From a bacterium (lineage in GTDB: Bacteria > Patescibacteriota > Saccharimonadia > CAILAD01 > GCA-016700035), in contig CP064998.1 of the NCBI GenBank assembly GCA_016700035.1, forward strand, positions 59,325 to 123,324: a stretch of 64,000 nt of DNA. The letters run 5' to 3'. Under the pieces are notes generated by a model. That model was not told the DNA's origin. It searched no databases and saw only the letters and a list, made by a program, of their open reading frames with translations. The translations under genes and the position numbers were made by a program. Below, one piece after another: positions 1-47,400 of this stretch. Within the stretch, counting starts at the first letter, position 1. Each line of letters begins with the position of its first letter.

Positions 1-375
1 AGGAAAGAATTGATAGAATTTTAATTCAACAACATAGTTGGTTTGCTTGCCAAAAGTATTAAAAACCTCCTCGAGAGTTGGTATTTTTTCACCTTTGAAA
101 CGCTTACTAAATTTTATGCCGGCATCAAGTTGCTTGATTTCTTGGAGAGTTTTTGTTGCGACTTGGCCACTTCCAGTAGTTGTTTTATTGAGAGTCGGAT
201 TATGCATGATGATTAGTTTTTTATCGTACGTTAACTGCACGTCTAGCTCGATGGCATCAGCTCTTTGACGGATAGCCTCTTGGAAGGCTGATAGGGTGTT
301 TTCTGGCGCATCGGCAGACGCTCCACGGTGGGCAATTATCATTGGCTGAGTCCGGTGTTTAAAGAAATTATTCAT
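1..375 (-). CDS. glycerophosphodiester phosphodiesterase (GDPD family), N-terminal part only; C-terminus lies outside the window
   Basis: Reverse-strand ORF running off the window edge with ATG at 375. It translates to MNNFFKHRTQPMIIAHRGASADAPENTLSAFQEAIRQRADAIELDVQLTYDKKLIIMHNPTLNKTT, which carries the GDPD HRG..APENT and E.D..LT.D..L...HD/N motifs. It is missing from the ORF track because no stop codon falls inside the window. Confidence 0.75.
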   Translation of the reverse strand, partial: MNNFFKHRTQPMIIAHRGASADAPENTLSAFQEAIRQRADAIELDVQLTYDKKLIIMHNPTLNKTTTGSGQVATKTLQEIKQLDAGIKFSKRFKGEKIPTLEEVFNTFGKQTNYVVELKFYQFFP

Positions 376-435: not shown

Positions 436-1086
436 TTGGTTGACCGAGATGTAATTTTAGCCGAGCGACAGTTTTTGGTAAAAATTCTGCAGGGACTTAC
501 AAACAAGCAGTGGCGAGGAGATACGCTATGTGCTGGCTGGACAGTGGAGGATTTGGCGGCGCATCTGATTGTACGCGAAAGAGGTTCGATACTGGCGCGA
601 GCTGGTATTATGTTGCCTTTTTTACACGACTATCATGATGGGGCTATCAAGAATATGAAGCAAATGAGTCATGTTGATATGATTGAGCGATTGAGTCATC
701 CGCCTGGCTGGGTGAAACGTTTGTCTTATAATGTGGTGGAATTTTATGTTCATAATGAAGATATTTTGCGTGGCGATCTGAAACAGGCACGGGTACCGAG
801 CGATGAGCTGGAATGGGCTTTGTCAGGCTTTGTTATGCAGTTGGGGCGGTTTGCGTTTCGTCGAGTGGAGGGCGGTTTTTGGTTGATTATTCATGATGAA
901 AGTTCTGGTAGTGTGCATGAGTGGCAAGTTGGTAAGAAGTCACAGAATATGCCTGAGCTCGATATTTCGGCTCCAGTCGGGGAGTTGACACTGTTGTTTA
1001 TGGGGCGAGGCAGGCATGCACGGGTGGATGTGCGTGGTAGTGAGGAGGCTAAGCGGCTGTATCGATTGGCTGATGTAGGGGTTTAA
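436..1086 (+). CDS. DinB_2 / mycothiol-maleylpyruvate-isomerase N-terminal domain family protein (TIGR03083-like, actinobacterial type)
   Basis: 216 aa ORF. The N-terminal LTNKQWRGDTLCAGWTVEDLAAHL resembles the MDMPI_N/DinB_2 signature. The locus is GC-rich by eye. Confidence 0.5.
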   Translation: MVDRDVILAERQFLVKILQGLTNKQWRGDTLCAGWTVEDLAAHLIVRERGSILARAGIMLPFLHDYHDGAIKNMKQMSHVDMIERLSHPPGWVKRLSYNVVEFYVHNEDILRGDLKQARVPSDELEWALSGFVMQLGRFAFRRVEGGFWLIIHDESSGSVHEWQVGKKSQNMPELDISAPVGELTLLFMGRGRHARVDVRGSEEAKRLYRLADVGV

Positions 1087-1156
1087 TGTCTTGCAATTTT
1101 GACAGATTTTTAGTATGATTTTATTTCTGTACCTCAATAGATGAAAGAGAGAAAAC

Positions 1157-1657
1157 TTGCATTACGAACCTGATAGAGATGAGTCCTCGAGTCGAGCGGC
1201 TCATCCGTCTGGCCAGGGTAACTTCCCTTGCGAATTTCATGTTTATGGCATGAATGGTGTTCAGGCGCGCATTACGCCAAGGCTTGATTTTGAGCGGGGG
1301 ACCTTCTGGTTGTCAATCCAGTCCGACGGTAGAACAATACCGTTTGATGCTGGATCGATTGATGAACTGATCGGTGTCATGGAGGCACAGATCCAGCAGG
1401 AACTCGGCTATCGACAGCATAACTTTGCCTTTCGGGGATCGACGCTCAGCGTGTTCCCATTGAGTCGCGGTTCCGACCAGACTCGCTGTGTCGGGATTAT
1501 GCTGGGAGGATCGACGCTACACTTGGATATGGAGGGGGTTGCCAGTCTGAGTGCTGAGCTGAGGCGGGTACGTAATGGCTTGGAAGTGCATGCTTCAACG
1601 CGAGGCATGCGACCGCCATCACGTCAGCTTCATTTGGTTGCAACATCCGAAACCTGA
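1157..1657 (+). CDS. hypothetical protein (start uncertain: TTG at 1157 or ATG at 1247)
   Basis: 166 aa ORF in a GC-rich patch with a purine-rich stretch upstream. No recognisable motifs. Confidence 0.4.
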   Translation: MHYEPDRDESSSRAAHPSGQGNFPCEFHVYGMNGVQARITPRLDFERGTFWLSIQSDGRTIPFDAGSIDELIGVMEAQIQQELGYRQHNFAFRGSTLSVFPLSRGSDQTRCVGIMLGGSTLHLDMEGVASLSAELRRVRNGLEVHASTRGMRPPSRQLHLVATSET

Positions 1658-1674
1658 AGAAAAAGGAGCTAACC

Positions 1675-1989
1675 ATGCGAGAACCTGATACTGATACCGG
1701 TTGGCAGCATCTGTTGACGCTGTGCGATGCAGATGATTGTTGCCCGCAAGTTTTCTATCACGAGAGTGCGCCAGTCGACTACAGTGTCCGGGTTGAGGAT
1801 GACTATGGGAATGTGGTCTTTTTCAGTCCGGGTGAGTTGTTGGAGGCTCGGCTGATTCCGATGGAGGATGGACCAGAGGCTTGGGCGCTACGTGATTGCT
1901 TCGGTAATGAGGCTTACATGACGCCCGATCAGCTGGCCGTCCTGCATACTGCGGACAATCTTCAGCTCATCGGAGATTTGCATAGCTAG
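1675..1989 (+). CDS. hypothetical protein
   Basis: 104 aa ORF with a good SD (aaaaggagctaacc ATG), same strand and GC-rich context as the two preceding genes. No recognisable motifs. Confidence 0.5.
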   Translation: MREPDTDTGWQHLLTLCDADDCCPQVFYHESAPVDYSVRVEDDYGNVVFFSPGELLEARLIPMEDGPEAWALRDCFGNEAYMTPDQLAVLHTADNLQLIGDLHS

Positions 1990-2066
1990 AGCTTAAGCTG
2001 TGCACTAACCTTCCAGACTTTGTCTGGAGGGTATTTTTTATATCTAGTCCATACTAGAATAAGGGC

Positions 2067-2786
2067 ATGGTTGTAGCTCAAGATTTTATTGATGCACTGT
2101 CACGAGTGGGTGATCCGGTTCGCGCTGAGCATTCATTGCGGTTTTTTAAGACGGGACCCGGTGAATACGGCGAAGGGGATAGGTTTTTTGGAGTAACTGT
2201 GCCAAATACTCGTAAATTGGTCGCTCAGTATAAGGTGCTACCACTTACGGAAATACAAAAACTCTTAGTCAGCGAGTGGCATGAGGCACGATTGGGTGGA
2301 TGTTTAATTTTGGTGGCTCAGTTTGAGCGGGGTGATTTGACTCGCCAACAGGAGATTTATAATTTTTATTTAAAGAATGCTCGGCGAATAAATAACTGGG
2401 ATTTGGTGGATAGTTCGGCGCCAAATATTGTTGGGACTTGGTTAGTCGGTACTGGTAATTGGAGCGTATTAAATCAGCTTGCGATTTCTGAAAATATTTG
2501 GGAGCGTCGCATTGCAATGCTGGCAACATTTGCTTTTATTCGCAATGGAAATTCGGAACCAACTTATGAGATTGCTGAGATTTTATTAGGTGATGAGCAT
2601 GATTTGATACATAAGGCAGTTGGCTGGATGTTGCGTGAAGCTGGGAAGCGAGTGAGCGAGACAGAGCTAGAGCTATGGATGCAGGAGGATGGTAGATATA
2701 AGATTATGCCTCGGACGATGTTGCGTTATGCAATAGAGCGCCTGCCGGAAGTTACGCGAAAAAGCTATTTAGTAGGTGAAAAGTAA
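2067..2786 (+). CDS. DNA alkylation repair protein (AlkD/AlkC-like HEAT-repeat glycosylase family)
   Basis: The N-terminal RFFKTGPGEYGEGDRFFGVTVPNTRKLVAQY matches the DNA_alkylation family signature. The ORF is 239 aa. Confidence 0.65.
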   Translation: MVVAQDFIDALSRVGDPVRAEHSLRFFKTGPGEYGEGDRFFGVTVPNTRKLVAQYKVLPLTEIQKLLVSEWHEARLGGCLILVAQFERGDLTRQQEIYNFYLKNARRINNWDLVDSSAPNIVGTWLVGTGNWSVLNQLAISENIWERRIAMLATFAFIRNGNSEPTYEIAEILLGDEHDLIHKAVGWMLREAGKRVSETELELWMQEDGRYKIMPRTMLRYAIERLPEVTRKSYLVGEK

Positions 2787-2873: not shown

Positions 2874-4082
2874 TTATTCATCGAAATAAAAGCGTTCATC
2901 GGCTAGTTCGTCTGGTAAAAAGCCGTTTGGCGCCTGAAAGTCAGCCTTCCACTGATAGCTTTTGCCATAGCCGAGCTCTTTCATTAGTTTGGTGGGGGCG
3001 TTACGTAGACCAAGCGGTACTTGGGCGGTTGGATTATTCTGGACGGCTTTTTTAGCTCGGCTCATAGCATCTGCCACTGAGCGACTTTTTGGTGATTTAG
3101 CTAAGGTAATAGTGGTGTGGGCCAGCGCGTACTCACCCTCTGGCAAGCCAATCCGTTCTATAGCCTGAAAGCAACTAACAGCCAGATTGAGCGCAGCCGG
3201 AGCAGCCATACCAATATCTTCTGAAGCAAGAATGATTAGGCGACGCGCGATAAACTTAGGGTCTTCACCGGCTTCAAGCATACGAAACAAGTAAAAAAGT
3301 GCAGCATCTACATGGCTGCCGCGGATAGATTTTATAAAGGCCGAGATAAGATTGTAGTGGTATTCGCCGGTTTTATCATAGCTGAGGACAAGTGTTTGCA
3401 TGGCTTGCTTAACTGTTTCGGGGGTGATGTGGGCTGGCGAGACTTGGATGGCACTCTCCAGCCCACCAAGTGCCGACCGCGCATCTCCAGCTGCTAGCTC
3501 AGCTAAAAGATCAAGCGCTGACTTATCAACTTTGGTGGTTGGATAGTTTTTTAAGGCTCGTCGAAGTAGTTTGATAAGTTCAGTTTTGGGGATTGCCTCC
3601 AAGACAACAACTCGGCTCCGCGATAATAACGGCGCAATTACCTCAAAACTAGGATTCTCGGTAGTGGCCCCTATAAAAGTAATGGTTCCATTTTCGATAT
3701 GGGGTAAGAAAGCATCTTGCTGGGCTTTGTTAAAACGATGAATTTCATCAACAAAAAGGATGGTTTGCGTGCCTAGCCGTTGCATGGCCTTGGCGTCTTC
3801 AATAACATGCATAACATCGGCCTTTGTGGCGGTAACGGCGGAGATTTCGACAAAATGGTAATTGCCAGACCGAGCCAGAATGCGAGCTAGGGTAGTTTTA
3901 CCACAGCCGGGAGGTCCCCAAAAGATGAGTGAAGATACCTGACCGGACTCTATAAGTTGGCGTATAAAACTACCCTTACTAATGACAGCTTCTTGGCCAA
4001 CCATCTCTTTCAGATTTTGGGGGCGAAGTCGATCGGCCAAGGGGCGAAACTCAATTTTTTTATGAGAGTTATCCTGAGGCAT
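2874..4082 (-). CDS. rarA: replication-associated recombination protein A (RarA/MgsA AAA+ ATPase)
   Basis: Walker A GPPGCGKTTLARILA, Walker B ILFVDEIHRFNKAQQD and the MgsA C-terminal helical domains are present. The ORF is 402 aa. Confidence 0.9.
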   Translation of the reverse strand: MPQDNSHKKIEFRPLADRLRPQNLKEMVGQEAVISKGSFIRQLIESGQVSSLIFWGPPGCGKTTLARILARSGNYHFVEISAVTATKADVMHVIEDAKAMQRLGTQTILFVDEIHRFNKAQQDAFLPHIENGTITFIGATTENPSFEVIAPLLSRSRVVVLEAIPKTELIKLLRRALKNYPTTKVDKSALDLLAELAAGDARSALGGLESAIQVSPAHITPETVKQAMQTLVLSYDKTGEYHYNLISAFIKSIRGSHVDAALFYLFRMLEAGEDPKFIARRLIILASEDIGMAAPAALNLAVSCFQAIERIGLPEGEYALAHTTITLAKSPKSRSVADAMSRAKKAVQNNPTAQVPLGLRNAPTKLMKELGYGKSYQWKADFQAPNGFLPDELADERFYFDE

Positions 4083-6741: not shown

Positions 6742-7389
6742 ATGGCATTTGGTTGTCAGATGAGTGTCAGTCTTGACGATGGCCGTACGGTTGAGCTGAA
6801 GCCCTTTACGCGCGAAGATGTGTCTGATGCGGTAGGTGGCATGCAGCGCTATTCGAATTTGAAGTGGCTCTCAACTAACCATGCCCAGACCATCGAATCC
6901 GAACAGGCTTGGTATGATCATATCGCCAGCTCGACCGATGAAGTCATCTTTGGTGTGCATATCGATAACCAGTTGATTGGAAGTTTTGGCTTGCATCGCA
7001 TTGCTGATCGGCGAGGAACGGCTGGTGCCGTGATGTTCTCGCGTGATCATCAGGAAATGGGTATTGGCACGGCGGTGACACGAGCTGGTCTCTACTACGC
7101 TGTGCAGGTGCTTGATATGGTTGCGATTGACTCGGCTGTTCTGTCGATGAATGTGCGGTCCTTGAGTATGCAGGAGTCGGCTGGTTTTGTGGTGACGGGA
7201 CGCAAGTTGCGTTGTCACATTGTCGATGGTCGTCCCTGTGATGAGCTCATCATGGTTTGGATTAACCCGAATCGACACACTTGGCAGTACATCTGGAGGA
7301 ATACTAGTGAAGGCAAGCAGTTTGTCGAGGCACGTAAGCGAGCCTGGAGTGTCCTGAGTTGGGCTGAAGAGCACGTTACACTTCTCTAA
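6742..7389 (+). CDS. GNAT family N-acetyltransferase
   Basis: 215 aa, GC-rich. The central region HQEMGIGTAVTRAGLYYAV is typical of the GNAT acetyl-CoA binding motif A region (Q/R-x-x-G-x-G/A). SD aagagga lies 5 nt upstream. Confidence 0.6.
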   Translation: MAFGCQMSVSLDDGRTVELKPFTREDVSDAVGGMQRYSNLKWLSTNHAQTIESEQAWYDHIASSTDEVIFGVHIDNQLIGSFGLHRIADRRGTAGAVMFSRDHQEMGIGTAVTRAGLYYAVQVLDMVAIDSAVLSMNVRSLSMQESAGFVVTGRKLRCHIVDGRPCDELIMVWINPNRHTWQYIWRNTSEGKQFVEARKRAWSVLSWAEEHVTLL

Positions 7390-15449: not shown

Positions 15450-16571
15450 ATGCCGCGTAAGGCAAAGAACCTAACACCACCACCAACCCCAGAAATACCA
15501 GATGAACTCAAGCCTATTGTTGATCGACTTTTAATGAAGGGTCGGGAGCAAGGGTTTGTTACGCAGCAGGAAATTATGGCTGCTGTTCCATCCGCTGAGG
15601 AGCAAGTTGAGTTATTGGATGATCTTTATTCAGCCTTGATCGATCAAGGGGTTGAGGTGGTTGATCAAAAAGATAAGCTTATTTGGCAAACTGAGCCAGA
15701 GGAAGATGTTGAAAACGCCACCAGCGAAGAATACATTAAAGACATTGCTGATGATTCTGTGCGGCTTTACTTGCGCGAGATTGGTAAGATTCCACTTATT
15801 ACCGCTGAAGAAGAAGTGGCTCTAGCAAAACGTATTGAGCAGGGTGATAAATCGGCTAAGGATGCCCTAGCTGAGGCAAATATGCGCTTGGTGGTATCGA
15901 TTGCTAAAAAGTATATTGGGCGTGGACTCGATCTCTTGGATCTTATCCAGGAGGGTAATACGGGTCTTTTGCGAGCTGTCGAAAAATTTGATTACACCAA
16001 AGGCTTTAAGTTTTCGACCTATGCCACGTGGTGGATTAGACAAGCTATTACTCGAGCAATAGCGGATCAGGCTAGAGTAATTCGTATTCCAGTTCATATG
16101 GTGGAGACGATTAATAAGCTTATTCGTACGCAACGTCGACTTACTTCTGAACTGGGACGTGAGCCAAGCCCGGAGGAGTTAGCAAAAGAAATGGAGATGG
16201 ATGTCGAGAAGGTTTTGCATATCCAAAAGATTAGTCAGGATACTACATCTCTAGATGCTACAGTTGGTGAGGATGATGACTCGACTCTTTCTGAGTTTAT
16301 TGAAGACCATGACTCGGTTAGTCCAGTTGATGCCGCGACTTATGAGCTTTTGAAGGAGCATATTGATGAGACTCTAGACCTCTTAACGCCTCGCGAGCAG
16401 AAGATTTTACGGATGCGGTTTGGCTTAGAGGATGGGCGTTCGCATACGCTAGAGGAAGTGGGTCAGGAATTTGGCGTGACACGGGAGCGTATCCGCCAGA
16501 TTGAAGCTAAGGCGCTGGCAAAATTGCGCAAGAATAAAGACTCGAAAAAACTTAAAGACTACATTCAATAA
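15450..16571 (+). CDS. rpoD: RNA polymerase sigma-70 factor RpoD/SigA
   Basis: Region 2 ([41 protein letters not shown]) and region 4 ([24 protein letters not shown]) are present. SD aaaggag lies upstream. Confidence 0.95.
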
Positions 16572-16573
16572 AA

Positions 16574-16599
16574 AACACCCAGCCTAATAGCTAGGTGTT
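16574..16599 (-). terminator. hairpin with U-tract on the minus strand (terminator of the 16598-16951 gene); no U-tract for rpoD
   Basis: aacacc(c)agc ctaata gct(a)ggtgtt forms a stem, with aaaaa immediately 5' on the + strand, which becomes the U-tract of the minus-strand transcript. Confidence 0.45.
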
Positions 16600-16951
16600 A
16601 CTGGAGTGGATCCGGTGCTTCGGGTGGTTCGGGATCTACATTGCCTGGTAGCGGGCCATTGCGCAGTTGATCGCGCGCCTCAGGCAGTCGTCGCTCGGCA
16701 ATATCTCGGTAGTGTTTACCAATGCGATGCTGTACAGGGGGTTCCTGTGGGCCCCGTGTTTTACCAGATGCTACACGTTCTTGTGCGGCTTGGAGTTCGG
16801 CTCGTGCCGCATCGGCAGGGCTGGTTGGCGGTGCATCATCAGGGTTGCTGTGTACCAGCTTACTCAGCGCCTCTTTATAGGCTTTAATTTTTTCTGGGTC
16901 AACAATATTATCGCCACGGATATCTCGATCTTTTTCGGATTGTTCGGCCAT
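16598..16951 (-). CDS. hypothetical Pro-rich, probably disordered protein (internal Met start of the 169-aa track ORF)
   Basis: The start was chosen at MAEQSEKDRD to avoid overlap with polA. The gene is GC-rich and has a minus-strand terminator. Two alternative-frame + ORFs overlap it, so coding status is uncertain. Confidence 0.35.
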   Translation of the reverse strand: MAEQSEKDRDIRGDNIVDPEKIKAYKEALSKLVHSNPDDAPPTSPADAARAELQAAQERVASGKTRGPQEPPVQHRIGKHYRDIAERRLPEARDQLRNGPLPGNVDPEPPEAPDPLQ

Positions 16952-17004: not shown

Positions 17005-19767
17005 ATGACAAAAAATCGATCACGCATTGCGGTTTTTGATGGCCATGCACTTTTGCATCGAGGCTTTCATGCCATTCCGTACCTATCAACAAAGGACGGT
17101 ACGCCAACCAACGGTGTGTATGGCTTCACGATGATGTTATTGAATGCAATCCGGGAGCTACAGCCAGAGTTTGTGGTGGTGGCCTGGGATATGCCCGGTA
17201 AAACATTTCGACATGAGATGTATGCCGACTACAAGGCTACTCGTAAGGAGACGGATGCTAATCTGATCCCTCAATTTGATACAACTCTGAATCTATTAGA
17301 GGTATTTGAGATACCGGTAATTGGGGTTAAGGGATATGAAGCCGATGACGTGATTGGTACTTTAGCTAAGCGATTTAAATCTTCGCACGATGTAGTGATT
17401 GTGACGGGGGATATGGATGAGCTCCAGCTCGTCGACGAAAACGTCAGGGTTTATACCTTGCGAAGAGGGTTTTCTGACACCGTTCTGTATGATGTTCAGG
17501 CAGTTGAATCTCGCTATGGAGTCTCTCCGCAAGAATTTTTGATTACAAAGGCTTTGAAGGGTGATACTAGTGATAATATTCCGGGCGTAAAAGGAATTGG
17601 TGAGAAGACTGCAGCAGATTTAGTTAAAGCCTATCAGACACTTGATGGAATCTATGATCATTTGGAGGATATAAAACCAGCAGTGAGGAAAAAACTAGAG
17701 CAAGGTAGGGAGGATGCTTATCATTCTCTAGAGCTTTCGCGCATAGCTTGCGATGTGGACTTCAAATTTGACCTGGAGTCAGCTCGCTTGCATCGGTTTG
17801 ATCGAGATAAGTTAGTTAAGCTTTTTACTGAGCTGGAGTTTAGGTCGCTGATTGCAAAACTACCTAAAAATCAGACCGAGGCAACTCAACAGCCAAATCT
17901 TTTTGATGATATATATGGTGCCGACAGTCAGCCGCAGAAGCTATTGAGAGATCATTTAAAGACTGCTAAGTATGAGATTGTACAAAATACTGATGCACTC
18001 GAAAAATTAGCTAAAGCGCTGAGTAAACAAAAAGTTTTTGCCTTTGATACGGAGACGACTGGCCTGGATGTAATGACGGCCGAACTGGTAGGCATGAGCT
18101 TTTCTTGGCAGTCGGGTGAGGCTTATTATGTTCCGGTAGGCCACATAGGGGGAGCGCAATTAAGTGTTGCTACGGTGCTGGATGTATTAGGACCAATTCT
18201 AGAAAGTTCTACTATTGGTAAGGTGGGACACAATATTAAGTACGATTATCAGATTATGAAGCGAGCCGGTGTTGATATGCGAGGTATTGAGTTCGACACC
18301 ATGGTGGCAGCCTTCCTAATTAATCCAATTGCGCGGGCTCAAACTCTTTCGTCTTTGGCGCTAGCAGAACTTGGCATTGAGATGATTGAAATCACCGAGT
18401 TAATTGGTCTAAAAGGTAAGGAGCAAAAGACGTTTGCCCAGGTTGATATAGCTGAAGCTGGCCAGTATGCGGCTGAAGATGCTGACATTACTTGGCGACT
18501 GTATGGGGTATTAAAACTTAGGTTGTCAGAGATTGGCCGACTAACTGAAGTGGGTGAGAAGTTGGAGTGGCCACTTATCCAGGTATTGGGAGATGTAGAG
18601 CTTGCTGGCGTGGAGTTGGATGTTGATTTTTTGGCTGACTTTTCACAGAAACTAACAAAGCGACTGCATGATGTGCAAAAACAGATCTGGGATTATGCTG
18701 AAGGTGAGTTTAATATAGCCTCAACCCAGCAATTAAAATCTGTCTTATTTGATAAGCTAAAAATTGATCACGCTGATCTGAAAAAAGGTAAGACAGGCAT
18801 TTCAACGGCTGCTACGGAGCTCGAGAAGTTGCGTGGTCGACATCCAATTATTGAGCTGATTTTTGAGTTTAGAGAAATTTCCAAGCTTAAGAGTACTTAT
18901 GTAGATGCCTTACCGCTTCTGGTGAATAATACCGACGGACGTATTCATACCAGCTACAACCAAACTATTGCCCAGACTGGCCGGCTTTCCAGTAGTGATC
19001 CAAACCTACAGAATATACCGGTTCGTACACCTTTAGGCCATGAAATACGGCAGGCTTTTGTGGCTGGCCGAGGTAAGGTTTTTGTAGCGGCCGACTATAG
19101 TCAGATTGAATTACGCCTAGCCGCAGCGATGGCGGGCGATACGCAGATGATTAAAGATTTTAAATCTGGTATAGATATTCATACCCTCACGGCAGCTCAA
19201 ATGCACGGCATTAAGCCAGATGAAGTAACAAAAGATCAGCGCTATGGCGCTAAGACAATTAATTTTGGCGTGCTGTATGGGATGAATACGCACGGACTAT
19301 CGGTTGCTACAGGTATGAGTTATGAAGATAGCAAGGCGTTTATTGATCGTTATTTTGAATTGCGCAAGGGTGTAGCCGACTATATTAAGCGCATTAAAAA
19401 ACAAGCTCATGATGAAGGTTATACAGAGACATTGTATGGTAGGCGTCGACCATGTCCAGATGTAAAGTCGAATAATTTTATTGTTCGTTCTGGTGCTGAA
19501 AGGCAGGCCGTTAATATGCCACTCCAGGGTACAGCAGCCGATATGATGAAACTAGCCATGATTCAGCTAGCACCAAAATTAGAACAGCTTAATGGTACGG
19601 CAGAAATAATCCTGCAAATTCATGATGAATTAATTGTGGAGTGTGATAGTGGCTTGCAAGACGAAGTTACGAGCATTATGAAGGCAACTATGGAGGGTGT
19701 CATTAAGCTTGCAGTGCCAATTGTCGTGGAGGTTGAAGCCGGAAAGGATTGGGGTGAGCTCGACTAA
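17005..19767 (+). CDS. polA: DNA polymerase I
   Basis: 920 aa with a 5'-nuclease domain, a 3'-5' exo-like domain and polymerase motifs A, B and C (DYSQIELR, KTINFGVLYG, QIHDEL). TATAAT lies 10 nt upstream of the ATG. Confidence 0.95.
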   Translation: MTKNRSRIAVFDGHALLHRGFHAIPYLSTKDGTPTNGVYGFTMMLLNAIRELQPEFVVVAWDMPGKTFRHEMYADYKATRKETDANLIPQFDTTLNLLEVFEIPVIGVKGYEADDVIGTLAKRFKSSHDVVIVTGDMDELQLVDENVRVYTLRRGFSDTVLYDVQAVESRYGVSPQEFLITKALKGDTSDNIPGVKGIGEKTAADLVKAYQTLDGIYDHLEDIKPAVRKKLEQGREDAYHSLELSRIACDVDFKFDLESARLHRFDRDKLVKLFTELEFRSLIAKLPKNQTEATQQPNLFDDIYGADSQPQKLLRDHLKTAKYEIVQNTDALEKLAKALSKQKVFAFDTETTGLDVMTAELVGMSFSWQSGEAYYVPVGHIGGAQLSVATVLDVLGPILESSTIGKVGHNIKYDYQIMKRAGVDMRGIEFDTMVAAFLINPIARAQTLSSLALAELGIEMIEITELIGLKGKEQKTFAQVDIAEAGQYAAEDADITWRLYGVLKLRLSEIGRLTEVGEKLEWPLIQVLGDVELAGVELDVDFLADFSQKLTKRLHDVQKQIWDYAEGEFNIASTQQLKSVLFDKLKIDHADLKKGKTGISTAATELEKLRGRHPIIELIFEFREISKLKSTYVDALPLLVNNTDGRIHTSYNQTIAQTGRLSSSDPNLQNIPVRTPLGHEIRQAFVAGRGKVFVAADYSQIELRLAAAMAGDTQMIKDFKSGIDIHTLTAAQMHGIKPDEVTKDQRYGAKTINFGVLYGMNTHGLSVATGMSYEDSKAFIDRYFELRKGVADYIKRIKKQAHDEGYTETLYGRRRPCPDVKSNNFIVRSGAERQAVNMPLQGTAADMMKLAMIQLAPKLEQLNGTAEIILQIHDELIVECDSGLQDEVTSIMKATMEGVIKLAVPIVVEVEAGKDWGELD

Positions 19768-29812: not shown

Positions 29813-31060
29813 TTGCCTAGTAGTATAGACTATCTAGCTGTATTACCGGCTGTTATTATTTTTACCATTTTAATAGATGGAATAAAGAGTTTAACAGAGG
29901 CTTTTTTATCAGCCAGGAAGATTTTACATATTCCACGCGAAAAGATACAGGGTAATACACAGCTTTCGGTTCTTATAGCCTGCCATAATGGGGAAAGTAA
30001 GATTGCACAAACAGTCAAAAATGTAAAAGCTTCACTGCCCGGATCGGTCGTTTATGTCGTTGATGACTGTTCTGATGATCGTACTGGTCTAGAGGCATTA
30101 CGGGCGGGTGCCAAAGTATTAAAGCTAGCACGAAATAGAGGTAAAGTTGGGGCTTTGCATAGGTTATTATCGCATATTAAGACAGACTTCGTACTGATTA
30201 TGGATGATGATATGTTGATTGATAATATAAAAATACCCTACGGATTACTCGATAAATTTGATGCTGTTGCATTTAATGTTCTACCTGAGGGTAACTCATT
30301 TTTGAGTAGATTACAGAGATATGAGTATCGGAAAAGTATGGAAATCGGTAAGACTTATCATTCGAGCACAGGATCAGTTTTATGTGTAAGTGGGGCAATA
30401 GGATTTTTTCGCACCAAGCGATTAATTTATCAGGTTGATAAACATAGCGGTGAGTTTAGTGGAGAGGATTTGGAGCGAACCCTACTCATACATTCAATGG
30501 ATGGTTCGAGGGGTGTTACATTCGTTGATTATGTAGTTTCGACTGAGGTTCCGCAATCTATACATACGCTTTTCCGCCAGCGTTGTTTAGGCTGGAATCC
30601 TGGATTTATGGGTAATGTTGTATTATTGATGAGGGTATTGGTTTCAAAAAATAAACCTACTCAATTGCGCTTTGATGTATTTTATAACTTAGTAAATATT
30701 ATTCTTGATATATTGAGAGTGTTATCTTTGCCGATACTTGTAAAATATCCTCTCATTATGATAACAATGTATATTCTCTATGTTGCGATTGATACTATTT
30801 TATATATAATACTAGGTCGCAAAGATCCGCTTTGGACAGTATTAATTGCGCCATTTTATGGAATTTTTTGCTTAATTACACGATTTATAGGTATATTTGT
30901 ATATTTTTACCGCGAACTTACTGAGTTAATATGTTGGCACATGAGAAGTATACCTGACTCGTATAAACAAGCTCCTCTATGGATGCAGTTTATAAGTTTT
31001 GGAGGGACGGCAATCTTATTGATTGGAGTATTGGCGTTAGGTTTGTGGTATACGATGTAA
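29813..31060 (+). CDS. family 2 glycosyltransferase with a C-terminal multi-TM domain (synthase-like)
   Basis: VLIACHNGE...YVVDDCSDD...LIMDDDMLID (DXD) plus FRQRCLGW, a loose fit to the Q..RW of processive GT2 synthases, and 3-4 C-terminal TM helices. The ORF is 415 aa. Confidence 0.7.
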   Translation: MPSSIDYLAVLPAVIIFTILIDGIKSLTEAFLSARKILHIPREKIQGNTQLSVLIACHNGESKIAQTVKNVKASLPGSVVYVVDDCSDDRTGLEALRAGAKVLKLARNRGKVGALHRLLSHIKTDFVLIMDDDMLIDNIKIPYGLLDKFDAVAFNVLPEGNSFLSRLQRYEYRKSMEIGKTYHSSTGSVLCVSGAIGFFRTKRLIYQVDKHSGEFSGEDLERTLLIHSMDGSRGVTFVDYVVSTEVPQSIHTLFRQRCLGWNPGFMGNVVLLMRVLVSKNKPTQLRFDVFYNLVNIILDILRVLSLPILVKYPLIMITMYILYVAIDTILYIILGRKDPLWTVLIAPFYGIFCLITRFIGIFVYFYRELTELICWHMRSIPDSYKQAPLWMQFISFGGTAILLIGVLALGLWYTM

Positions 31061-31160: not shown

Positions 31161-32909
31161 TTACAATTTAGTTTTACCGGTGCTTGATTGAAGTTCGAAT
31201 AATTTCTTGTAAAGACCACGGGGTTTTTTGATTAGATTGTTGTGGGTTCCACGCTCTACGATTGTACCTTTCTGTAGTACGAGTATTTCATCGGCATGAC
31301 GAACGGTGCTGAGTCGATGGGCGATAGTTAGGCTTAAGCGCCCTTTCATGAGTTTTTTCAGGCCATCTTGCACAAGTTTTTCAGATTCGGAGTCGAGTGC
31401 TGAAGTTGCTTCATCGAGGATTATGAGGTCTGGATCCTTTAAGATAGCTCGTGCAATAGCTACACGTTGCTTTTGGCCACCTGATAGTTTTATGCCACGT
31501 TCACCAACGATGGTGTTGTATTTTTTTGGAAGGTTTTCGATAAACTCAGCAGCATGGGCTTGTTCGACGGCAGTCTCCAGATCGGCTTGAGTAGCTTTAT
31601 CATTGGCTAGCTTGAGGTTTTCTTTAATAGTTCTATTAAATAGAGCAACGTCTTGCATGACCATACCAATGTGTTGACGGACTGATTCGTGAGTATATGT
31701 GTCGGCTGGCTGATCGTTAATTAAGATTTCGCCAGCCGTTGGGGCATAGAAGCGTAGCATTAGTTTTGTTATGGTAGACTTGCCAACACCTGAGGGTCCG
31801 ACGAGGGCAATAGAATTATTTTTATCAATTCGAAAGCTGATATTTTCAATGGCACCCTTCTTGCTGTCTGGATAAGCAAAAGAGACATTGCGAAACTCCA
31901 GTGACTCAAGTTTTATCAGCTGAATGGCATTTGGGCTACTAGGGAAAGTTGGCTTTTCTTCAAGCAGTGTAACTAGGCGCTCCACATCATTTTCTACCCG
32001 ATCAGTATCGGGTATAAATTGTGCAAAAGCACGGGCATTATTTCGTAGTGAGTTATAGTAGGCAGTAACGGCTACAAAAGTACCGGCTGAGAGTCGCCCC
32101 TGAATAAGTTCAAAAATAATTATTATGATAGCTAGTATGAAAGATAGCTCATTAAATATTGATACTCGGAAGCCAGATAATTGCCAAGCGTCACGTACCA
32201 TGAAGGCTTGCTCTAAAACCCTATCTTGCTCTTTACTGAATAGGTTGCGAAATCGATTAACTGAAGAAAGAGTTGAAATTGTGGTCATATTTTGAATAGT
32301 TTCGGAGAATATTGCAGAGCTAGCTTCACTATGTTTGCGCCAGGCCAGATTTGCTGGTCGATTACGCTTGCGGGTTATATGAAATTCGAAAGAGGAATAG
32401 ATTATTATACCGAAACCCAAGAGGCCAATTAAGAGATTAGTTTGCATGAGGATTATAGTAACGATAATCATTGTAAATATTGGACCCAGGAGTGAATAGT
32501 TGAGGCTATTTATCCAAGATGCAAAACTATCGATTGCTTGATTGTTTTTATGGATAATTGCACCAGGTCGATGGGTATCAAAATAGTCTGTGCTTAATGA
32601 GGTAATTTTGGCGAAGACTTTTTGATGTAGTCCAGACCTGACGGTATGGAAGCTTCGATTGCTTACTATATTAAAAATATATGAAGTTGCCAGTACGATT
32701 GCGCTTAATAGTGTTAGAAGTATTAAGTCAGATTTAACATCTGCCCAGCTTAGGCTATTACCTTTGGCGACAACCGTATCGACTATCTGCTTAAATATTT
32801 GTGGCTGGATGGCAGTTATGCCAGCTATGATTAAGCTGGCCACCATGATAGTTAGTAGGCGACCATATTGCTCGCGTATATAAGGCAGTATTTTTAAGAT
32901 ATTCTTCAT
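31161..32909 (-). CDS. ABC exporter, fused permease-ATPase (MsbA/lipid- or polysaccharide-exporter-like)
   Basis: 582 aa. Six N-terminal TM helices, Walker A GPSGVGKST, signature LSGGQKQR and Walker B ILDEATSALD are present. Confidence 0.85.
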   Translation of the reverse strand: MKNILKILPYIREQYGRLLTIMVASLIIAGITAIQPQIFKQIVDTVVAKGNSLSWADVKSDLILLTLLSAIVLATSYIFNIVSNRSFHTVRSGLHQKVFAKITSLSTDYFDTHRPGAIIHKNNQAIDSFASWINSLNYSLLGPIFTMIIVTIILMQTNLLIGLLGFGIIIYSSFEFHITRKRNRPANLAWRKHSEASSAIFSETIQNMTTISTLSSVNRFRNLFSKEQDRVLEQAFMVRDAWQLSGFRVSIFNELSFILAIIIIIFELIQGRLSAGTFVAVTAYYNSLRNNARAFAQFIPDTDRVENDVERLVTLLEEKPTFPSSPNAIQLIKLESLEFRNVSFAYPDSKKGAIENISFRIDKNNSIALVGPSGVGKSTITKLMLRFYAPTAGEILINDQPADTYTHESVRQHIGMVMQDVALFNRTIKENLKLANDKATQADLETAVEQAHAAEFIENLPKKYNTIVGERGIKLSGGQKQRVAIARAILKDPDLIILDEATSALDSESEKLVQDGLKKLMKGRLSLTIAHRLSTVRHADEILVLQKGTIVERGTHNNLIKKPRGLYKKLFELQSSTGKTKL

Positions 32910-42507: not shown

Positions 42508-44334
42508 ATGCGCGAGTCCGAAAAACAGTATAGTCCTCAGGATAGACAAGGTGCGGAAAACTTTTCGCGCGCGCAAGCATATCTGTCGCTGAAGGGAGAA
42601 GGACTGCAAACGCGTACTGAGCATTCGCGTAGTTTAGAGGATGCAGAGAAGTATCGTGCTCTTGAAACACTCAAGAGTTTGGGGGTACTCATACCGCTGA
42701 GTGAGCTAGAGATATACCATGGTCGTGCAGCGCATCCAGGCGAAACTGAGGCATGGGAGGTAGATCCGGCTTTTAGTAATGGCGGTAATAATACTGGTAA
42801 TTCAAACGTTAATAAACGCTCAACTCTATATACTGGACACCGGGAGATTGCAACCGATTTTGCTAGAGCAAGATCTGGTAGGACTCGAGATGGGTCTATT
42901 TCTCAGCCAGAAATTCATCGCATTGATACGCATGATTTGGACGCAACGGTATTTAATCACAACTTTGATATTAGTAAGCTAAGCCCTCAGCAGATAAGTG
43001 AATATACCCAAGCCTTGAGTAAGATTCTGGTATCGCCAACTGAAGGATCGCCGTTAGATTTTCAGGATCGAGCCGCTTGGGGGCAGCTTATACCACATAT
43101 TGCGTCCCTCGGGGAGCGTAGGTTCTTTTCGGATGATGATACGGATAGATTAGTCACTCAGTCAGGTTTATCTACCGAAGTGGTAACGCAATTAATTGGT
43201 GCAATAAATTCTCGACAAATGGCTAAAGTTAATCCGGGCTATTTAATATCAAGACTAGTGAATGGCTCAGAAGATCTTAGCCATGGTTATATGGTGTTGG
43301 ACGGAGAGCGAATAGATATGCCGCTTAATCTAGAATATGTACAAAAGTATCTGCATGAAGCGCATATTGTGGGCGTACAACAGCCCGTTTATTCTGCTAC
43401 TCTGGACCAAGATATAGAGATTGTATCTTTTTTTGATCTAGATGAAGTTAAGACCAGTCGGTCCAAAGAGCGCGAGCGCGAGCGTAGCTGGACGGCATTT
43501 GGTGGGTTGGCGCAGGCCATGGATGGCTTGGTGAGTCCAGAAGCCCAATCAGATAGTCCATTGATGGCACAACTAACTGATACCCATGCAAAGCCCAGAG
43601 ATATTATGCAAGATGCTCAGCGTGTACCGGGTTATGAGCAGATTTTTGCTGGCTCTGCCGGTGTATGGGAGGGCTTTACACTAGGTGAGCATACCGAAAC
43701 GGTGTTGCGCAATTTTGATGAAACCTACGCTGATCGGATGCCGGTAGGTTTATTGGCACCGATGCGGTTAGCTATTTTGACGCATGATATTGGTAAGAGT
43801 GAGACAGTTGCGAGATTGAGTAAATTAGAGCAATCAAAGATAAATACTCGTCAGGCAATTGATTTTATGGATAAACTTGGCGTAGATGAGCGACATCAGG
43901 ATGTAATTATTTCTATGGTTGGCTTAGGTGCGGATTTGGCATATTTAATTGATGTTAAGGGTGAGGGAGGTAAGGTGAAGCAGGCTATGTTTCAGCTAGC
44001 CCAGGGTACAATGCGAGAATTTTTTGGTCGCGAACCGAGTCGTGATGAAATGCGAGCTTTTGTTGAGATGTGCCGTACTCTACAGCGCTGTGATGGCGGT
44101 GCCTATACCAGCATGGCGGTAACACGTTCACGCGATGGTAATGGTTATTATCGTAACGCACCATCTTTTAACGCATCGTTTGCGCAACCAGTTGATGCAG
44201 GTCGGCGTAAGGTTGGTTTGCGTAAGCCGGGACAGCAGTCGGCTCAGCTCAGTCAGGCACCGAAGAGCATGGAGCCAGTCTCACGTATTCGAATGCAACC
44301 TAGAGGCGTCGCGGCAAAACCGCCAAAGTTATAG
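42508..44334 (+). CDS. large hypothetical protein with a C-terminal HD (metal-dependent phosphohydrolase) domain
   Basis: 608 aa. The H...HD pattern GEHTETV ... LAILTHDIGKSE is present. There is no TM or signal peptide, and the gene is GC-richer than its flanks. Confidence 0.5.
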   Translation: MRESEKQYSPQDRQGAENFSRAQAYLSLKGEGLQTRTEHSRSLEDAEKYRALETLKSLGVLIPLSELEIYHGRAAHPGETEAWEVDPAFSNGGNNTGNSNVNKRSTLYTGHREIATDFARARSGRTRDGSISQPEIHRIDTHDLDATVFNHNFDISKLSPQQISEYTQALSKILVSPTEGSPLDFQDRAAWGQLIPHIASLGERRFFSDDDTDRLVTQSGLSTEVVTQLIGAINSRQMAKVNPGYLISRLVNGSEDLSHGYMVLDGERIDMPLNLEYVQKYLHEAHIVGVQQPVYSATLDQDIEIVSFFDLDEVKTSRSKERERERSWTAFGGLAQAMDGLVSPEAQSDSPLMAQLTDTHAKPRDIMQDAQRVPGYEQIFAGSAGVWEGFTLGEHTETVLRNFDETYADRMPVGLLAPMRLAILTHDIGKSETVARLSKLEQSKINTRQAIDFMDKLGVDERHQDVIISMVGLGADLAYLIDVKGEGGKVKQAMFQLAQGTMREFFGREPSRDEMRAFVEMCRTLQRCDGGAYTSMAVTRSRDGNGYYRNAPSFNASFAQPVDAGRRKVGLRKPGQQSAQLSQAPKSMEPVSRIRMQPRGVAAKPPKL

Positions 44335-44438: not shown

Positions 44439-47400
44439 ATGCCAAATAAATCGATCGATAGCATTGGCCCAAAGCCAAACAAGAATAACATTAAGCCTGT
44501 TGCTGAGCATAGGGCTGGTGAGGTTGTGCGTCCAAAGGGTGCCCCCACTCAAGCCGGAGAATCGATTAAGCCAAAAGGTTATCAGGCGCCAAAGAAACTG
44601 GAATCAACAGTAGGTAAACCCGACCAGCCTAAGCGACCTGTCAATAAGAAAAAAGTAGCAGTTTTTGCTGGGTTTGTAGGGTTATTTATCCTAGTTTCTC
44701 TAGCTGCAGTTTGGTTATTGCGCGGTACAAATTTACTTAATTCAGTCGGTAAGCCAAAGCCGGCTGCTGGTAATTTTGCCGAGGTTGGAGATCAGGCTTC
44801 AACTTTGGATGAGTTTAATAAGGTCAAAGATGCTTATCAGGGTTTTAATAAAAAGCAGGCTACACCAGCGGATAGTCAAGTGGTGGCCGCTAATGCCTCT
44901 AGAGACCTTATTACTTATCTGGCTCTAAAATCTGAAGCTGTGAAGCAAGGGGTTGAGTGTACTTGGGAAATTGTTGACACGCGCATGGCAACCCAGTATC
45001 AGTCTTATGGTGGGAAGGAGGCCTTTTATGCTTATCTAGCCCAAGAATATGGTTGGAGTAAAGAGGTTAGTTTTATGAAGACCTGCACTGAATATTACCG
45101 AGAAGTATTGGCGCAAAAAGTGATTGGCGGAACGGATGCTTTTGGAGTATATATTCGCTGGGATAACATGGATAATGATTCCACAGCTCAACAAAGGGCG
45201 ACTTATGAACAAGAGGCAAAAGCTAGGTTAGAGCGTGATTTCTTGCCTCTATTTAAGAGCGGAGCCAGCAAAGAGGAGATTTATCGAGCTGCTGATATTA
45301 GTCCGTATAGTACAGATGTAGAATTTGATAAGAAGATGGAAACACCCGGTAGCCCCTGGGTGCGTACAGTTGAATACCCACGCTTAAATGAAACTACTTA
45401 TGCTAGCTTTCAGCAGTATCCAGAGGGTGAAAGGGATATTGACTACATATCAAAGCTAGCTGTTGGTGAGAATACAGTCGTATTTAAGTCTAAGGTTGGT
45501 TATTATGCTATTTTTCGGGCTACTAATAGGATTCAAGGAGAAGCAGGGTCTATAGATCAAGTTATACAAAAGTATATTGATGGCGCTAAGCTCAGTACAG
45601 AATATTATGCATTACCAAAGCCCAGTAGTAATGGACAAGAGCAGTTTGATATGCACGATCTCAAGCAAGATAATACAACCGGCATGCTAGATTCGATGCG
45701 ACAGGCTTTAGTGCCCACGGCCCGGGCAGTAAATTGCTTTACAAACCATCGGCTGCCAATGAGTATTATTTATACCGACTATGCTACAGGTCAGCTAATA
45801 CCACTAGAGCAAATACGTACTAATAAGGGTGCGCCAATTAGTACTTTGCAAATATTAAGTACCGGCAATGTACAAGCAGCCTGTAATGATGAGCCTGCCC
45901 CAATCCAGAACGCTTATGGTGTATTAAACTTTGGATACTGGGCTGGACGAGCTAGCTGGGATGTTTTTGACCACCGAAATAATCCATGGGCTTTTAATCT
46001 GAGTTGTTACACGAGCTGGGAATTTCGCTTTAATAAGGTATATGGCTATGAGCAGGTAAATTATCAAGACGCTAGTCAGTTTGAGGTTACACTTCTAACC
46101 AACCAGTGGATCGTTCAAAATAGGGCTTCGGCTTATACTGATCATTATCGGATTCCACCCGATCTATACCAGGGTATTGCTAACGGTGCTCTCGGATATT
46201 CCATTAATGTAAGGATGCGCAAAGAGCCTCCGACCACTGGATGGAATCCGCCACTTATGACAGTCTCGGGTGAAAAACAAGAGGAAGATGGAACAACTAT
46301 CGGTGCATATGCTGACAATACTGTGAGTGAACAGCCGAACAACTTTACTAGCAGTGGTCAACCCTATTCATTTCCTGGCTTGCGGGCCGATCAAGGCCAT
46401 GTGTTTACTGTAGAGACTGAGCCTAACTATGATGTACTGGGATATCGAATAAATGGCGGGCCAATCAACCAGTCTACAACCTATACTTATGTGGCTGGTA
46501 CGACTGGCGATGGTACTACATTAGATGTGGATTGGATTTTCCGTAGACGTCCAACTGTCAATCTATCGGTAACCTGTGCGCTTATTTCGGGTAATGTTAT
46601 TGGTGGTGGCGGTGCAACCATTGAGACATATGCTCGTGTGGGCGGCGCTGATTTGGTGGATGGTGCTGGCCAGCGGATTATTCAGGGGCGAAACTTTAGC
46701 TTTACAGTTCCTGAAGCGTATAAAGACGGTGTTGGTCGAACCGTTGAGCTTCGTTTGATTGTAGATGGCGTTGACTGGGGTGCCGCCGCCGCCACCACGC
46801 TCAGCTGTAATCGTAACGCATTGTGTAGCAATAATAATTTAGGTACTGTTTTCCCCGGTAATCGTGTAACTATTGGTGTAGGTGGACAAGAAGAGGGAAT
46901 ATCAATTGCCATGTCGAATAATGGTGAGTCGATTTGGAGTACTTATTCTACCGGTACTTATCAACTAGTTCTGACACCAGAGGCAGATATTTACTGGGAT
47001 ATTGTTGCTGGTACATCAGTTCCTGCAGGAGAGAAGATTTATCCTCAGCCTAACCCAATTAGTGGTAAGACTTTTGCACCTATTACCGTTACCCTTACGG
47101 CAAGCCCTTCTGATAGCACTACACCACTAGGTTTTCAAATGGCCTTTATACCAGATGGTGGCGGTGCAGCTCAACGATTTGGAACTGCTTGCTCAACTGA
47201 GTTACGCGTGCTTTCTTCCTATGGTCCGTGGCTCCGTACGCAAAATGGCAATGTTTCTGCAATGGGTGTTATCAAGGGGCAGGAGGCATTATCGCTAACT
47301 GGTGGTAATTTAGGTGGTCGACGAGCCGCCGGTTCAGCTGGAACGACAGCTGATGGGCAAAAAGATGATATCAATTTGGAGGCTACTTACTTATTGCTTT

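Follow-up and report, generated by a model that had tools for sequence, protein, structure and literature searches.

An actinobacterial-type gene and a separate GC-rich orphan pair at a conserved Saccharibacteria locus

PF11716 (MDMPI_N) is the N-terminal domain of mycothiol-dependent maleylpyruvate isomerase. We analyzed a 64-kb stretch of contig CP064998.1 (positions 59,325 to 123,324, hereafter the window), in which a gene for a protein of this type, g1 (436-1086), is followed by two orphan genes, g2 (1157-1657) and g3 (1675-1989); all three open reading frames (ORFs) were confirmed at these coordinates, which an earlier note on this DNA had given. Among described acquisitions in Saccharibacteria, an arginine deiminase system was acquired in mammal-associated lineages (PMC8764695), and the origination and transfer analysis of Jaffe et al. 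(PMC8406219) notes that evidence of transfer is lacking for those host-epibiont pairs that have been profiled experimentally. On the structural side, a beta4-alpha repeat topology, of the kind predicted here for g2 and g3, defines the PC4-like family of single-stranded nucleic-acid binders (PMC7549692).

The earlier note had proposed that g1, g2 and g3 form one GC-rich island, possibly transferred from an actinobacterial host to its symbiont. That observation is partly confirmed, as the patch is real but smaller and differently structured than proposed, and its interpretation as a host-derived island is partly supported. With slightly better than even confidence, we favor a two-layer model comprising an anciently captured g1 and a separate g2-g3 cassette with a tentative PC4/PUR-like fold. 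The organism is a member of the Saccharibacteria, as had been supposed: of the genomes that share its gene order, the closest carry the label uncultured Candidatus Saccharibacteria.

Family, relatives and synteny of g1

The assignment of g1 as an MDMPI_N or TIGR03083-like protein was borne out by scores of 37.4 bits against PF11716 (cutoff 24.2) and 65.7 bits against TIGR03083 (cutoff 50). Residues 10-205 also align end to end with positions 4-196 of the TIGR03085 profile at 97.1 bits, below the cutoff of 138.85, so that by profile comparison g1 is a divergent relative of TIGR03085, and not a member by NCBI's threshold. Residues H43, E102 (E102-x3-H106), H106, E108, D109 and R112 are invariant across 17 diverse homologs, and the invariant His and Glu-x3-His presumably correspond to the His/Glu/His metal site of DinB-type proteins. 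No PDB chain related by sequence to g1 was found. The ratio of nonsynonymous to synonymous substitution rates (dN/dS) of g1 between close strains is 0.07-0.10.

Relatives of g1 were sought by scanning one genome of each GTDB species for a pattern, which yielded 563 confirmed relatives, the best 80 loci of which were analyzed. Among these 80, 75 belong to Actinomycetota at 29-36% identity (including Micromonosporaceae, Acidimicrobiia, Dermatophilaceae and Cellulomonas), in agreement with the earlier description of the family as mostly actinobacterial, and five to Saccharibacteria or unclassified metagenome-assembled genomes (MAGs). Three Saccharibacteria MAGs carry g1 at 66-67% identity; the two copies at 35-36% come from a further Saccharibacteria MAG and from an unclassified 'bacterium' MAG that has the same upstream genes. 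The window's g1 is at most 35% identical (mean 31%) to the sampled actinobacterial homologs. A neighbor-joining (NJ) tree with midpoint rooting, restricted to the 80 best-scoring loci, placed every Saccharibacteria-type g1 in one bipartition in 500/500 bootstraps.

The surroundings of g1 are conserved as well. In the locus with an identical g1 (L001), the gene for a glycerophosphodiester phosphodiesterase (GDPD, PF03009) ends 93 nt upstream of g1, and a GDPD neighbor is present in all relatives. The order GDPD(-), g1(+), variable genes, MgsA(-), LytR(-) was found in contigs whose g1 is 67, 60, 57, 56, 47 and 38% identical to that of the window, with Gmk(-) next after LytR wherever the contig extends that far, and with PepM3 and/or MsrB a few genes upstream of g1 in most of them. 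The loci with the most distant copies, at 35-36% identity (L028/L029), keep PGI-PepM3-MsrB on the left and have flavin mononucleotide (FMN) reductases and an SLT transglycosylase in the vicinity, as well as MsrA in L028. The divergence of g1 parallels that of GDPD and AlkD (Table 2), and its GC content is close to that of the locus in every lineage examined. Absence from sister genomes, as would suit a recent island, was not observed: g1 is syntenic in all relatives examined, and every sub-clade member whose contig extends to the slot carries g2-g3.

Because g1 is monophyletic, fixed in position and diverging in step with its neighbors, any transfer of the gene must be ancient. A single, ancient transfer from Actinomycetota to Saccharibacteria appears to be the most economical history on the sequence evidence; the proposed host-to-symbiont transfer thereby retains its phyla, while a recent arrival is at odds with monophyly, synteny and an identity of at most 35%. 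As msrA and msrB or FMN reductases lie nearby in deeper lineages, and an AlkD-like glycosylase in this one, g1 may help to repair or detoxify oxidative or electrophilic damage in a thiol- or metal-dependent manner. The organism that carries g1 is not known to produce mycothiol.

Composition, setting and rarity of the g2-g3 cassette

The window has a GC content of 44.2%, its ORFs average 44.9% (standard deviation 3.1) with a mean GC content at third codon positions (GC3) of 40.7% (standard deviation 7.3), and its intergenic DNA is 38.9% GC. For each gene, an expected GC content was computed from the encoded protein and from synonymous codon usage in the window (leave-one-out), and the excess was expressed as z. 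By this measure g1 is ordinary (47.8% GC, GC3 0.45, synonymous-codon z 0.9), whereas g2 (53.5% GC, GC3 0.52; synonymous excess z 3.3, GC3 z 3.7) and g3 (53.3% GC, GC3 0.56; z 4.1 and 4.0) are not. The earlier estimate of three genes in the mid-50s % holds approximately for g2 and g3 and fails for g1, and the proposed three-gene island comes apart along the same line. At 53.2% GC, the segment 1157-1989 is richer than any other stretch of 833 nt in the 64 kb (z 3.2, top 0.08% of positions). Amino-acid composition accounts for approximately half of the excess in g2 and a quarter in g3, and the remainder is codon choice, with A-ending codons at 12% in g2-g3 versus 25% in other plus-strand genes. 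Since intergenic DNA reaches only 38.9% GC, the excess of g2-g3 does not represent a neutral equilibrium.

Windowed GC content and codon usage were non-uniform at g2-g3 and also at the GNAT gene (6742-7389), which the note had listed as GC-richer and which shows the strongest synonymous excess in the window (51.5% GC, GC3 0.55, z 4.7). The HD gene at 42508-44334, listed alongside it, is as ordinary as g1 (46.6% GC, z -1.2). A small ORF listed without its strand (16598-16951, minus strand) does reach 54.2% GC; its GC3 is nevertheless normal at 0.40, because the richness derives from a Pro/Ala/Glu-rich composition.

Judged by its sequence signals, g2-g3 constitutes a probable bicistronic cassette apart from g1, equipped with Shine-Dalgarno sequences and with a promoter-like site and a terminator-like hairpin of its own (Table 1); g3 starts 17 nt after g2 and is preceded by an AAGGAG Shine-Dalgarno sequence. 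The slot downstream of g1 varies between lineages, reading g1, g2, g3, alkD in the window's sub-clade; g1, msrA, alkD in L112, where 4 nt separate g1 from msrA; g1, msrA, orf116, TfoX_N in L111; and g1 followed by g3 alone in L113. In deeper lineages msrA lies 4-26 nt after g1, with msrB or FMN reductases nearby. The L111 TfoX_N-domain gene (6826-7167) has a domain that occurs in the competence regulator TfoX/Sxy. Separately, the 5' ends of g2 and g3 have a 15-nt stretch in common (1166-1180, GAACCTGATAGAGAT, and 1681-1695, GAACCTGATACTGAT; 13/15 identical), which encodes E-P-D-x-D at codons 3-8 and is confined to the close strains of the window; this likeness could be due to chance, or to local duplication or conversion.

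Table 1. Coordinates of the features at and near the g1-g3 locus (positions in the window)
Feature	Position	Strand	Evidence or accession
GDPD (glycerophosphodiester phosphodiesterase), 5' part, cut by window start; conserved left flank	1..342	-	PF03009 in L001
g1, DinB_2/MDMPI_N-type putative metal-binding enzyme, 216 aa	436..1086	+	HMM scores; GenBank QQS27016.1
Sigma-70-like promoter match TTGCAA-17-TATGAT, in 70-nt g1-g2 spacer	1091..1119	+	9/12 matches, consensus match only
g2, 166-aa orphan protein, GC-rich, predicted (beta4-alpha)x2 topology	1157..1657	+	GenBank QQS27017.1, IPM44_00325
g3, 104-aa acidic (pI 4.05) Cys-containing orphan protein, GC-rich	1675..1989	+	motif C-[HD]-x3-C-C-P ... 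D-D-[YF]-G-N
Intrinsic-terminator-like hairpin, 11-bp stem (6 GC pairs) then T run; closes g2-g3 unit	2008..2042	+	
AlkD-like DNA alkylation repair protein, conserved right neighbor	2067..2786	+	PF08713, E 4e-54; composition z -1.1
MgsA/RarA AAA+ ATPase, anchor of syntenic block	2874..4082	-	79-89% identity among relatives
GNAT acetyltransferase, second gene with synonymous GC excess	6742..7389	+	z 4.7

Hidden Markov models (HMMs) of g2 and g3 were searched against the six-frame ORFs of 105 sequences (the window and 104 loci). Matches were confined to the window's sub-clade, all sampled genomes of which were positive, and no homolog of either gene was detected within 6 kb of 75 actinobacterial g1 genes. 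The positional orthologs are truly homologous, with E-values of 1e-13 to 1e-28 for g3 and of 1e-7 to 1e-17 for g2 (one lineage being undetectable by BLAST), although identity is only 19-29% for g2 and 36-47% for g3, compared with 79-89% for MgsA. The low dN/dS of g2 (0.09-0.25) and g3 (0.07-0.15) indicates that both are real coding genes under purifying selection. The claim that the two have no recognizable homologs is correct as regards Pfam, NCBIfam, PADLOC, PHROGs and PDB sequences, none of which gave a match, and incorrect for related genomes.

The g3 family is also rare beyond these loci. An exhaustive phmmer search of g3 against 1.84 billion representative proteins returned 12 matches, one of them a spurious repeat protein (approximately 11 real clusters), a scan of JGI metagenomes identified 2 loci, both with the same neighbors, and no relative was found in IMG/VR. 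Two of the g3 matches are single-repeat proteins from outside the clade, P0100 on a 66%-GC contig and P0103 on a 38%-GC contig. As a further observation, L107-L109, contigs of approximately 66% GC, encode a 64-aa single-repeat homolog of the N-terminal half of g3 (863-1057 in L107; C-H-x3-C-C-P ... D-D-Y-G), which is divergently transcribed from a metal-sensing repressor of the CsoR/RcnR/FrmR family; P0100 adjoins such a repressor in three independent contigs.

The GC excess of g2 and g3 extends to their orthologs (Table 2), and the GNAT ortholog in L018/L019 is likewise above its locus (56.5-56.8% versus 49%), so that GNAT resembles g2-g3 in its behavior, that of an accessory gene of high GC content; copies lie at L018 11589-12245 and L113 9401-10048, and none was called in the corresponding stretch of L021. 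Because every relative shows the g2-g3 excess irrespective of its genomic GC content, it is not evidence of recent arrival, and its presence in lineages whose MgsA is 79-89% identical dates it to before their divergence. We lean slightly towards the excess being, most likely, a remnant, not yet fully erased, of a long-past acquisition from a donor of higher GC content, given the variable slot, the outside relatives, including one in 66%-GC DNA, and the avoidance of A-ending codons. g2-g3 may or may not have come from a host.

Table 2. Identity to the window copy and GC content at relatives of the locus (all values in %)
Locus	GDPD	g1	AlkD	MgsA	g2	g3	GC of g2	GC of g3	Locus GC
Window							53.5	53.3	44.2
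L018	67	67	73	89	24	42	54.7	55.3	49.1
L021	62	60	70	84	29	47	53.5	56.2	48.8
L023	65	56	62	79	19	36	59.0	58.8	53.7
L113 (g3 only; GC3 0.70)								56.8	51.7

A mild incongruence is apparent among these loci: L021 is closer to the window than L018 in g3 (47 versus 42%) and g2 (29 versus 24%), whereas L018 is closer in g1, AlkD, MgsA and GDPD. Unequal rates of evolution, or transfers of the cassette between Saccharibacteria, could account for this pattern.

Tests for mobility were negative. The window contains no tRNA or tmRNA gene and no Rfam family at the gathering score, excluding an RNA gene or tRNA target at the patch, and the repeats around the patch are only short chance matches. A phage or defence origin was likewise rejected, as g1-g3 have no PADLOC or PHROG match and g3 no relative in IMG/VR. 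The patch differs from a recent island in that only two of its three genes are atypical in composition, in its presence in sister genomes, and in lacking both mobility hallmarks and high identity to genes of the proposed donor.

Other genes of the window are anomalous in different ways. Two adjacent, very large ORFs (44439-48431, 1330 aa, and 48516-54863, 2115 aa) lack any Pfam domain at E <= 1e-5 and combine an unusually low GC3 (0.35 with z -2.2 in the first, 0.32 with z -5.8 in the second) with a high GC content at second codon positions; they may encode giant proteins of uncharacterized function, and an assignment as RNA polymerase subunits was rejected because Pfam finds no domain. A family-2 glycosyltransferase gene (29813-31060; 36.4% GC) shows the opposite anomaly to g2-g3, with z -5.1 after amino-acid correction, and may be a separately acquired AT-rich gene; the adjoining ABC exporter gene (31161-32909, minus strand) is AT-rich through its amino-acid composition. 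The ORF at 16598-16951, which encodes a 117-aa low-complexity, Pro/Ala/Glu/Asp-rich product without a Pfam family, sits between ORFs of 373 aa (15450-16571) and 920 aa (17005-19767).

Predicted folds and candidate functions of g2 and g3

A model of g3 built from a 12-sequence alignment (predicted local distance difference test score, pLDDT, 82; predicted template modelling score, pTM, 0.76) has the topology beta4-alpha followed by beta3-alpha-alpha. Beta4-alpha repeats, two per domain, are seen in the predicted models of both g2 (low confidence) and g3, and the two independent models converge on the same top structural chain, which is suggestive. The internal repeat of g2 is itself only suggestive at the sequence level (E 0.0015, probability 16%). 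Based on these models, g2-g3 may form a single-stranded nucleic-acid-binding, or SsgB-like protein-binding, pair, and by analogy with MRP1/MRP2 the two proteins may act as a heteromer.

The g3 family has a C-x4-C-C-P cluster in which C17, C23 and P24 never vary and C22 hardly does. His18 and Cys37 are found in most members, while in the window's own clade His18 is replaced by Asp and Cys37 by Ser, leaving three Cys. The acidity of g3 and its Cys cluster make a metal-binding or protein-binding role a live alternative.

Three further assignments were tried and rejected. A C-x-x-V ... V-R-D ... G motif seen by eye had hinted at an actinobacterial DUF397 (PF04149)/BldB-like protein for g3, for which there was no Pfam match at E <= 10 and an hhalign probability of 0.5% against the L073 DUF397-like protein, itself identified by motif. 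For g2 as a degenerate MsrA, considered on account of the same slot and a similar length, the hhalign probability was 0.7%. Finally, g2 and g3 gave no profile signal as paralogs.

History of the locus and comparison with known systems

The two-layer model would unfold as follows. A member of the otherwise actinobacterial g1 family would have been gained by a Saccharibacteria ancestor in a single ancient event. It would have passed vertically from then on, keeping its place in the order GDPD, g1, variable slot, MgsA, LytR, Gmk, and its composition would have become genome-like. The ancestor of one sub-clade would have acquired g2-g3 from a GC-richer donor, the cassette taking the variable slot downstream of g1 in which deeper lineages carry msrA.

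Several points weigh against parts of this account. The NJ tree of the 80 best loci resolves neither the donor clade nor the direction of the g1 transfer, a direction that we infer, and the role proposed for g1 derives from gene neighborhood only. With respect to the fold, the g2 model comes from a single sequence at pLDDT 55.6, with only 1/5 models above 42, and Foldseek returned no significant match for the confident g3 model (best E 0.27). Eight members of the g2 and g3 families gave no Pfam match at E <= 10 to PUR (PurA) or Whirly, nor to MRP, DUF2128 or similar families, hhalign shows no relationship between g2 and g3, and the acidity of g3 (pI 4-6) is unusual for a nucleic-acid binder. 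Taking both sides together, we judge the odds that a PC4/PUR/Whirly-like fold is right for at least one of the two proteins to be even or marginally better. Regarding composition, a GC3 offset maintained across saturated synonymous divergence should be mostly gone under simple amelioration, and gene-specific selection explains the offset equally well.

This last point leads to the possible, if doubtful, explanation that g2-g3 were born in the lineage or are long resident, and that their GC-rich codons reflect a selected, gene-specific equilibrium (e.g., for mRNA structure or translation rate). Such an equilibrium would fit a GC and GC3 offset that stays similar in every lineage while the genomic baseline moves from 44% to 54% GC, the same conserved offset in GNAT, purifying selection on both genes, and the failure to find a donor among 75 actinobacterial loci, IMG/VR and 1.84 billion proteins. 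It is harder to reconcile with the variable slot, in which the presence of msrA in deeper lineages implies that g2-g3 arrived by insertion or replacement, or with the distant single-repeat g3 homologs on 66%- and 38%-GC contigs, which indicate that the family did not arise de novo here; moreover, no mechanism is known that would select G/C-ending codons in these genes alone. By comparison, we regard one recent island of all three genes, passed from an actinobacterial host to its Saccharibacteria epibiont, as highly improbable. The normal composition of g1 (z 0.9), its identity of at most 35% to sampled Actinomycetota, its monophyly within Saccharibacteria (500/500) and its synteny down to 38% identity all contradict it, as do the g2/g3 orthologs in all sampled sub-clade members, the lack of any g2/g3 homolog within 6 kb of the 75 actinobacterial g1 genes, and the absence of tRNA genes from the window and of flanking repeats at the patch. 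These outweigh the overwhelmingly actinobacterial membership of the g1 family, the atypical codon usage of g2-g3 as the most GC-rich stretch, and the fact that cultured Saccharibacteria, including a wastewater isolate, parasitize Actinobacteria (PMC11880426).

With regard to function, g3 might instead be a small Cu/Zn-binding protein with g2 as its partner, the cassette serving metal or redox homeostasis beside a DinB-like metalloenzyme. We consider this unlikely, even though the conserved Cys/His/Pro positions of the g3 family, the acidity of the protein, and the position of g3 always directly downstream of g1 or g2 (including the g1-g3 arrangement of L113) would all be in keeping with it. 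The divergent CsoR/RcnR/FrmR-type repressor adjoining P0100 in three independent contigs points the same way, but this neighborhood is limited to one lineage, His18 and Cys37 have been replaced in the window's clade, and g3 matches no metal-binding family. A more far-reaching variant of the two-layer model, in which g2-g3 would be a hitherto unrecognized, Saccharibacteria-restricted PC4/PUR-like pair, one of the two with a Cys cluster, forming a damage-response module with g1 and AlkD, and g1 would use a thiol beyond the epibiont's own synthesis, such as host-derived mycothiol, seems to us quite improbable; if g1 did use host-derived mycothiol, the locus would be a genomic marker of dependence on actinobacterial hosts.

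Returning to the two-layer model, its broader implication is that, in the reduced genome of an epibiont, a patch of high GC content is not necessarily a sign of recent host-to-symbiont transfer: here, the actinobacterial-type gene is fully ameliorated and old, and the genes of odd composition have no traceable donor. g1 represents a reasonably well-supported case of ancient capture of an Actinomycetota-type gene, one that is plausible but unsurprising and that fits the known association with actinobacterial hosts. The very rare orphan pair g2-g3, which lies next to DNA-repair genes and whose predicted fold is a nucleic-acid-binding one, amounts to a lead and not yet to a result, and a gene-specific GC3 excess lasting across deep divergence poses a small puzzle for models of amelioration.

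Compared with known systems, g1 resembles the actinobacterial TIGR03085/TIGR03083 proteins (PF11716) in its full-length match to TIGR03085 and in passing the PF11716 and TIGR03083 cutoffs, but differs from them in being only 29-36% identical to actinobacterial members, in scoring under the TIGR03085 cutoff, and in a neighborhood of msrA/msrB/AlkD instead of aromatic catabolism. The predicted topology of g2 and g3 is that of the PC4-like family, which includes Pur-alpha, Whirly/PBF-2 p24, trypanosome MRP1/MRP2, Borrelia Bpur and YdbC (PMC7549692); however, neither has sequence-profile similarity to any member family, and g3 stands apart through its acidity and through a Cys cluster of a kind that has not been described in PC4-like proteins. 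As in the documented Saccharibacteria acquisitions (PMC8764695, PMC8406219), a small module is present in part of the phylum in a pattern of lateral acquisition followed by vertical inheritance, whereas for g1 the candidate donor phylum is Actinomycetota and the event would predate the splitting of lineages whose copies are only 35-38% identical.

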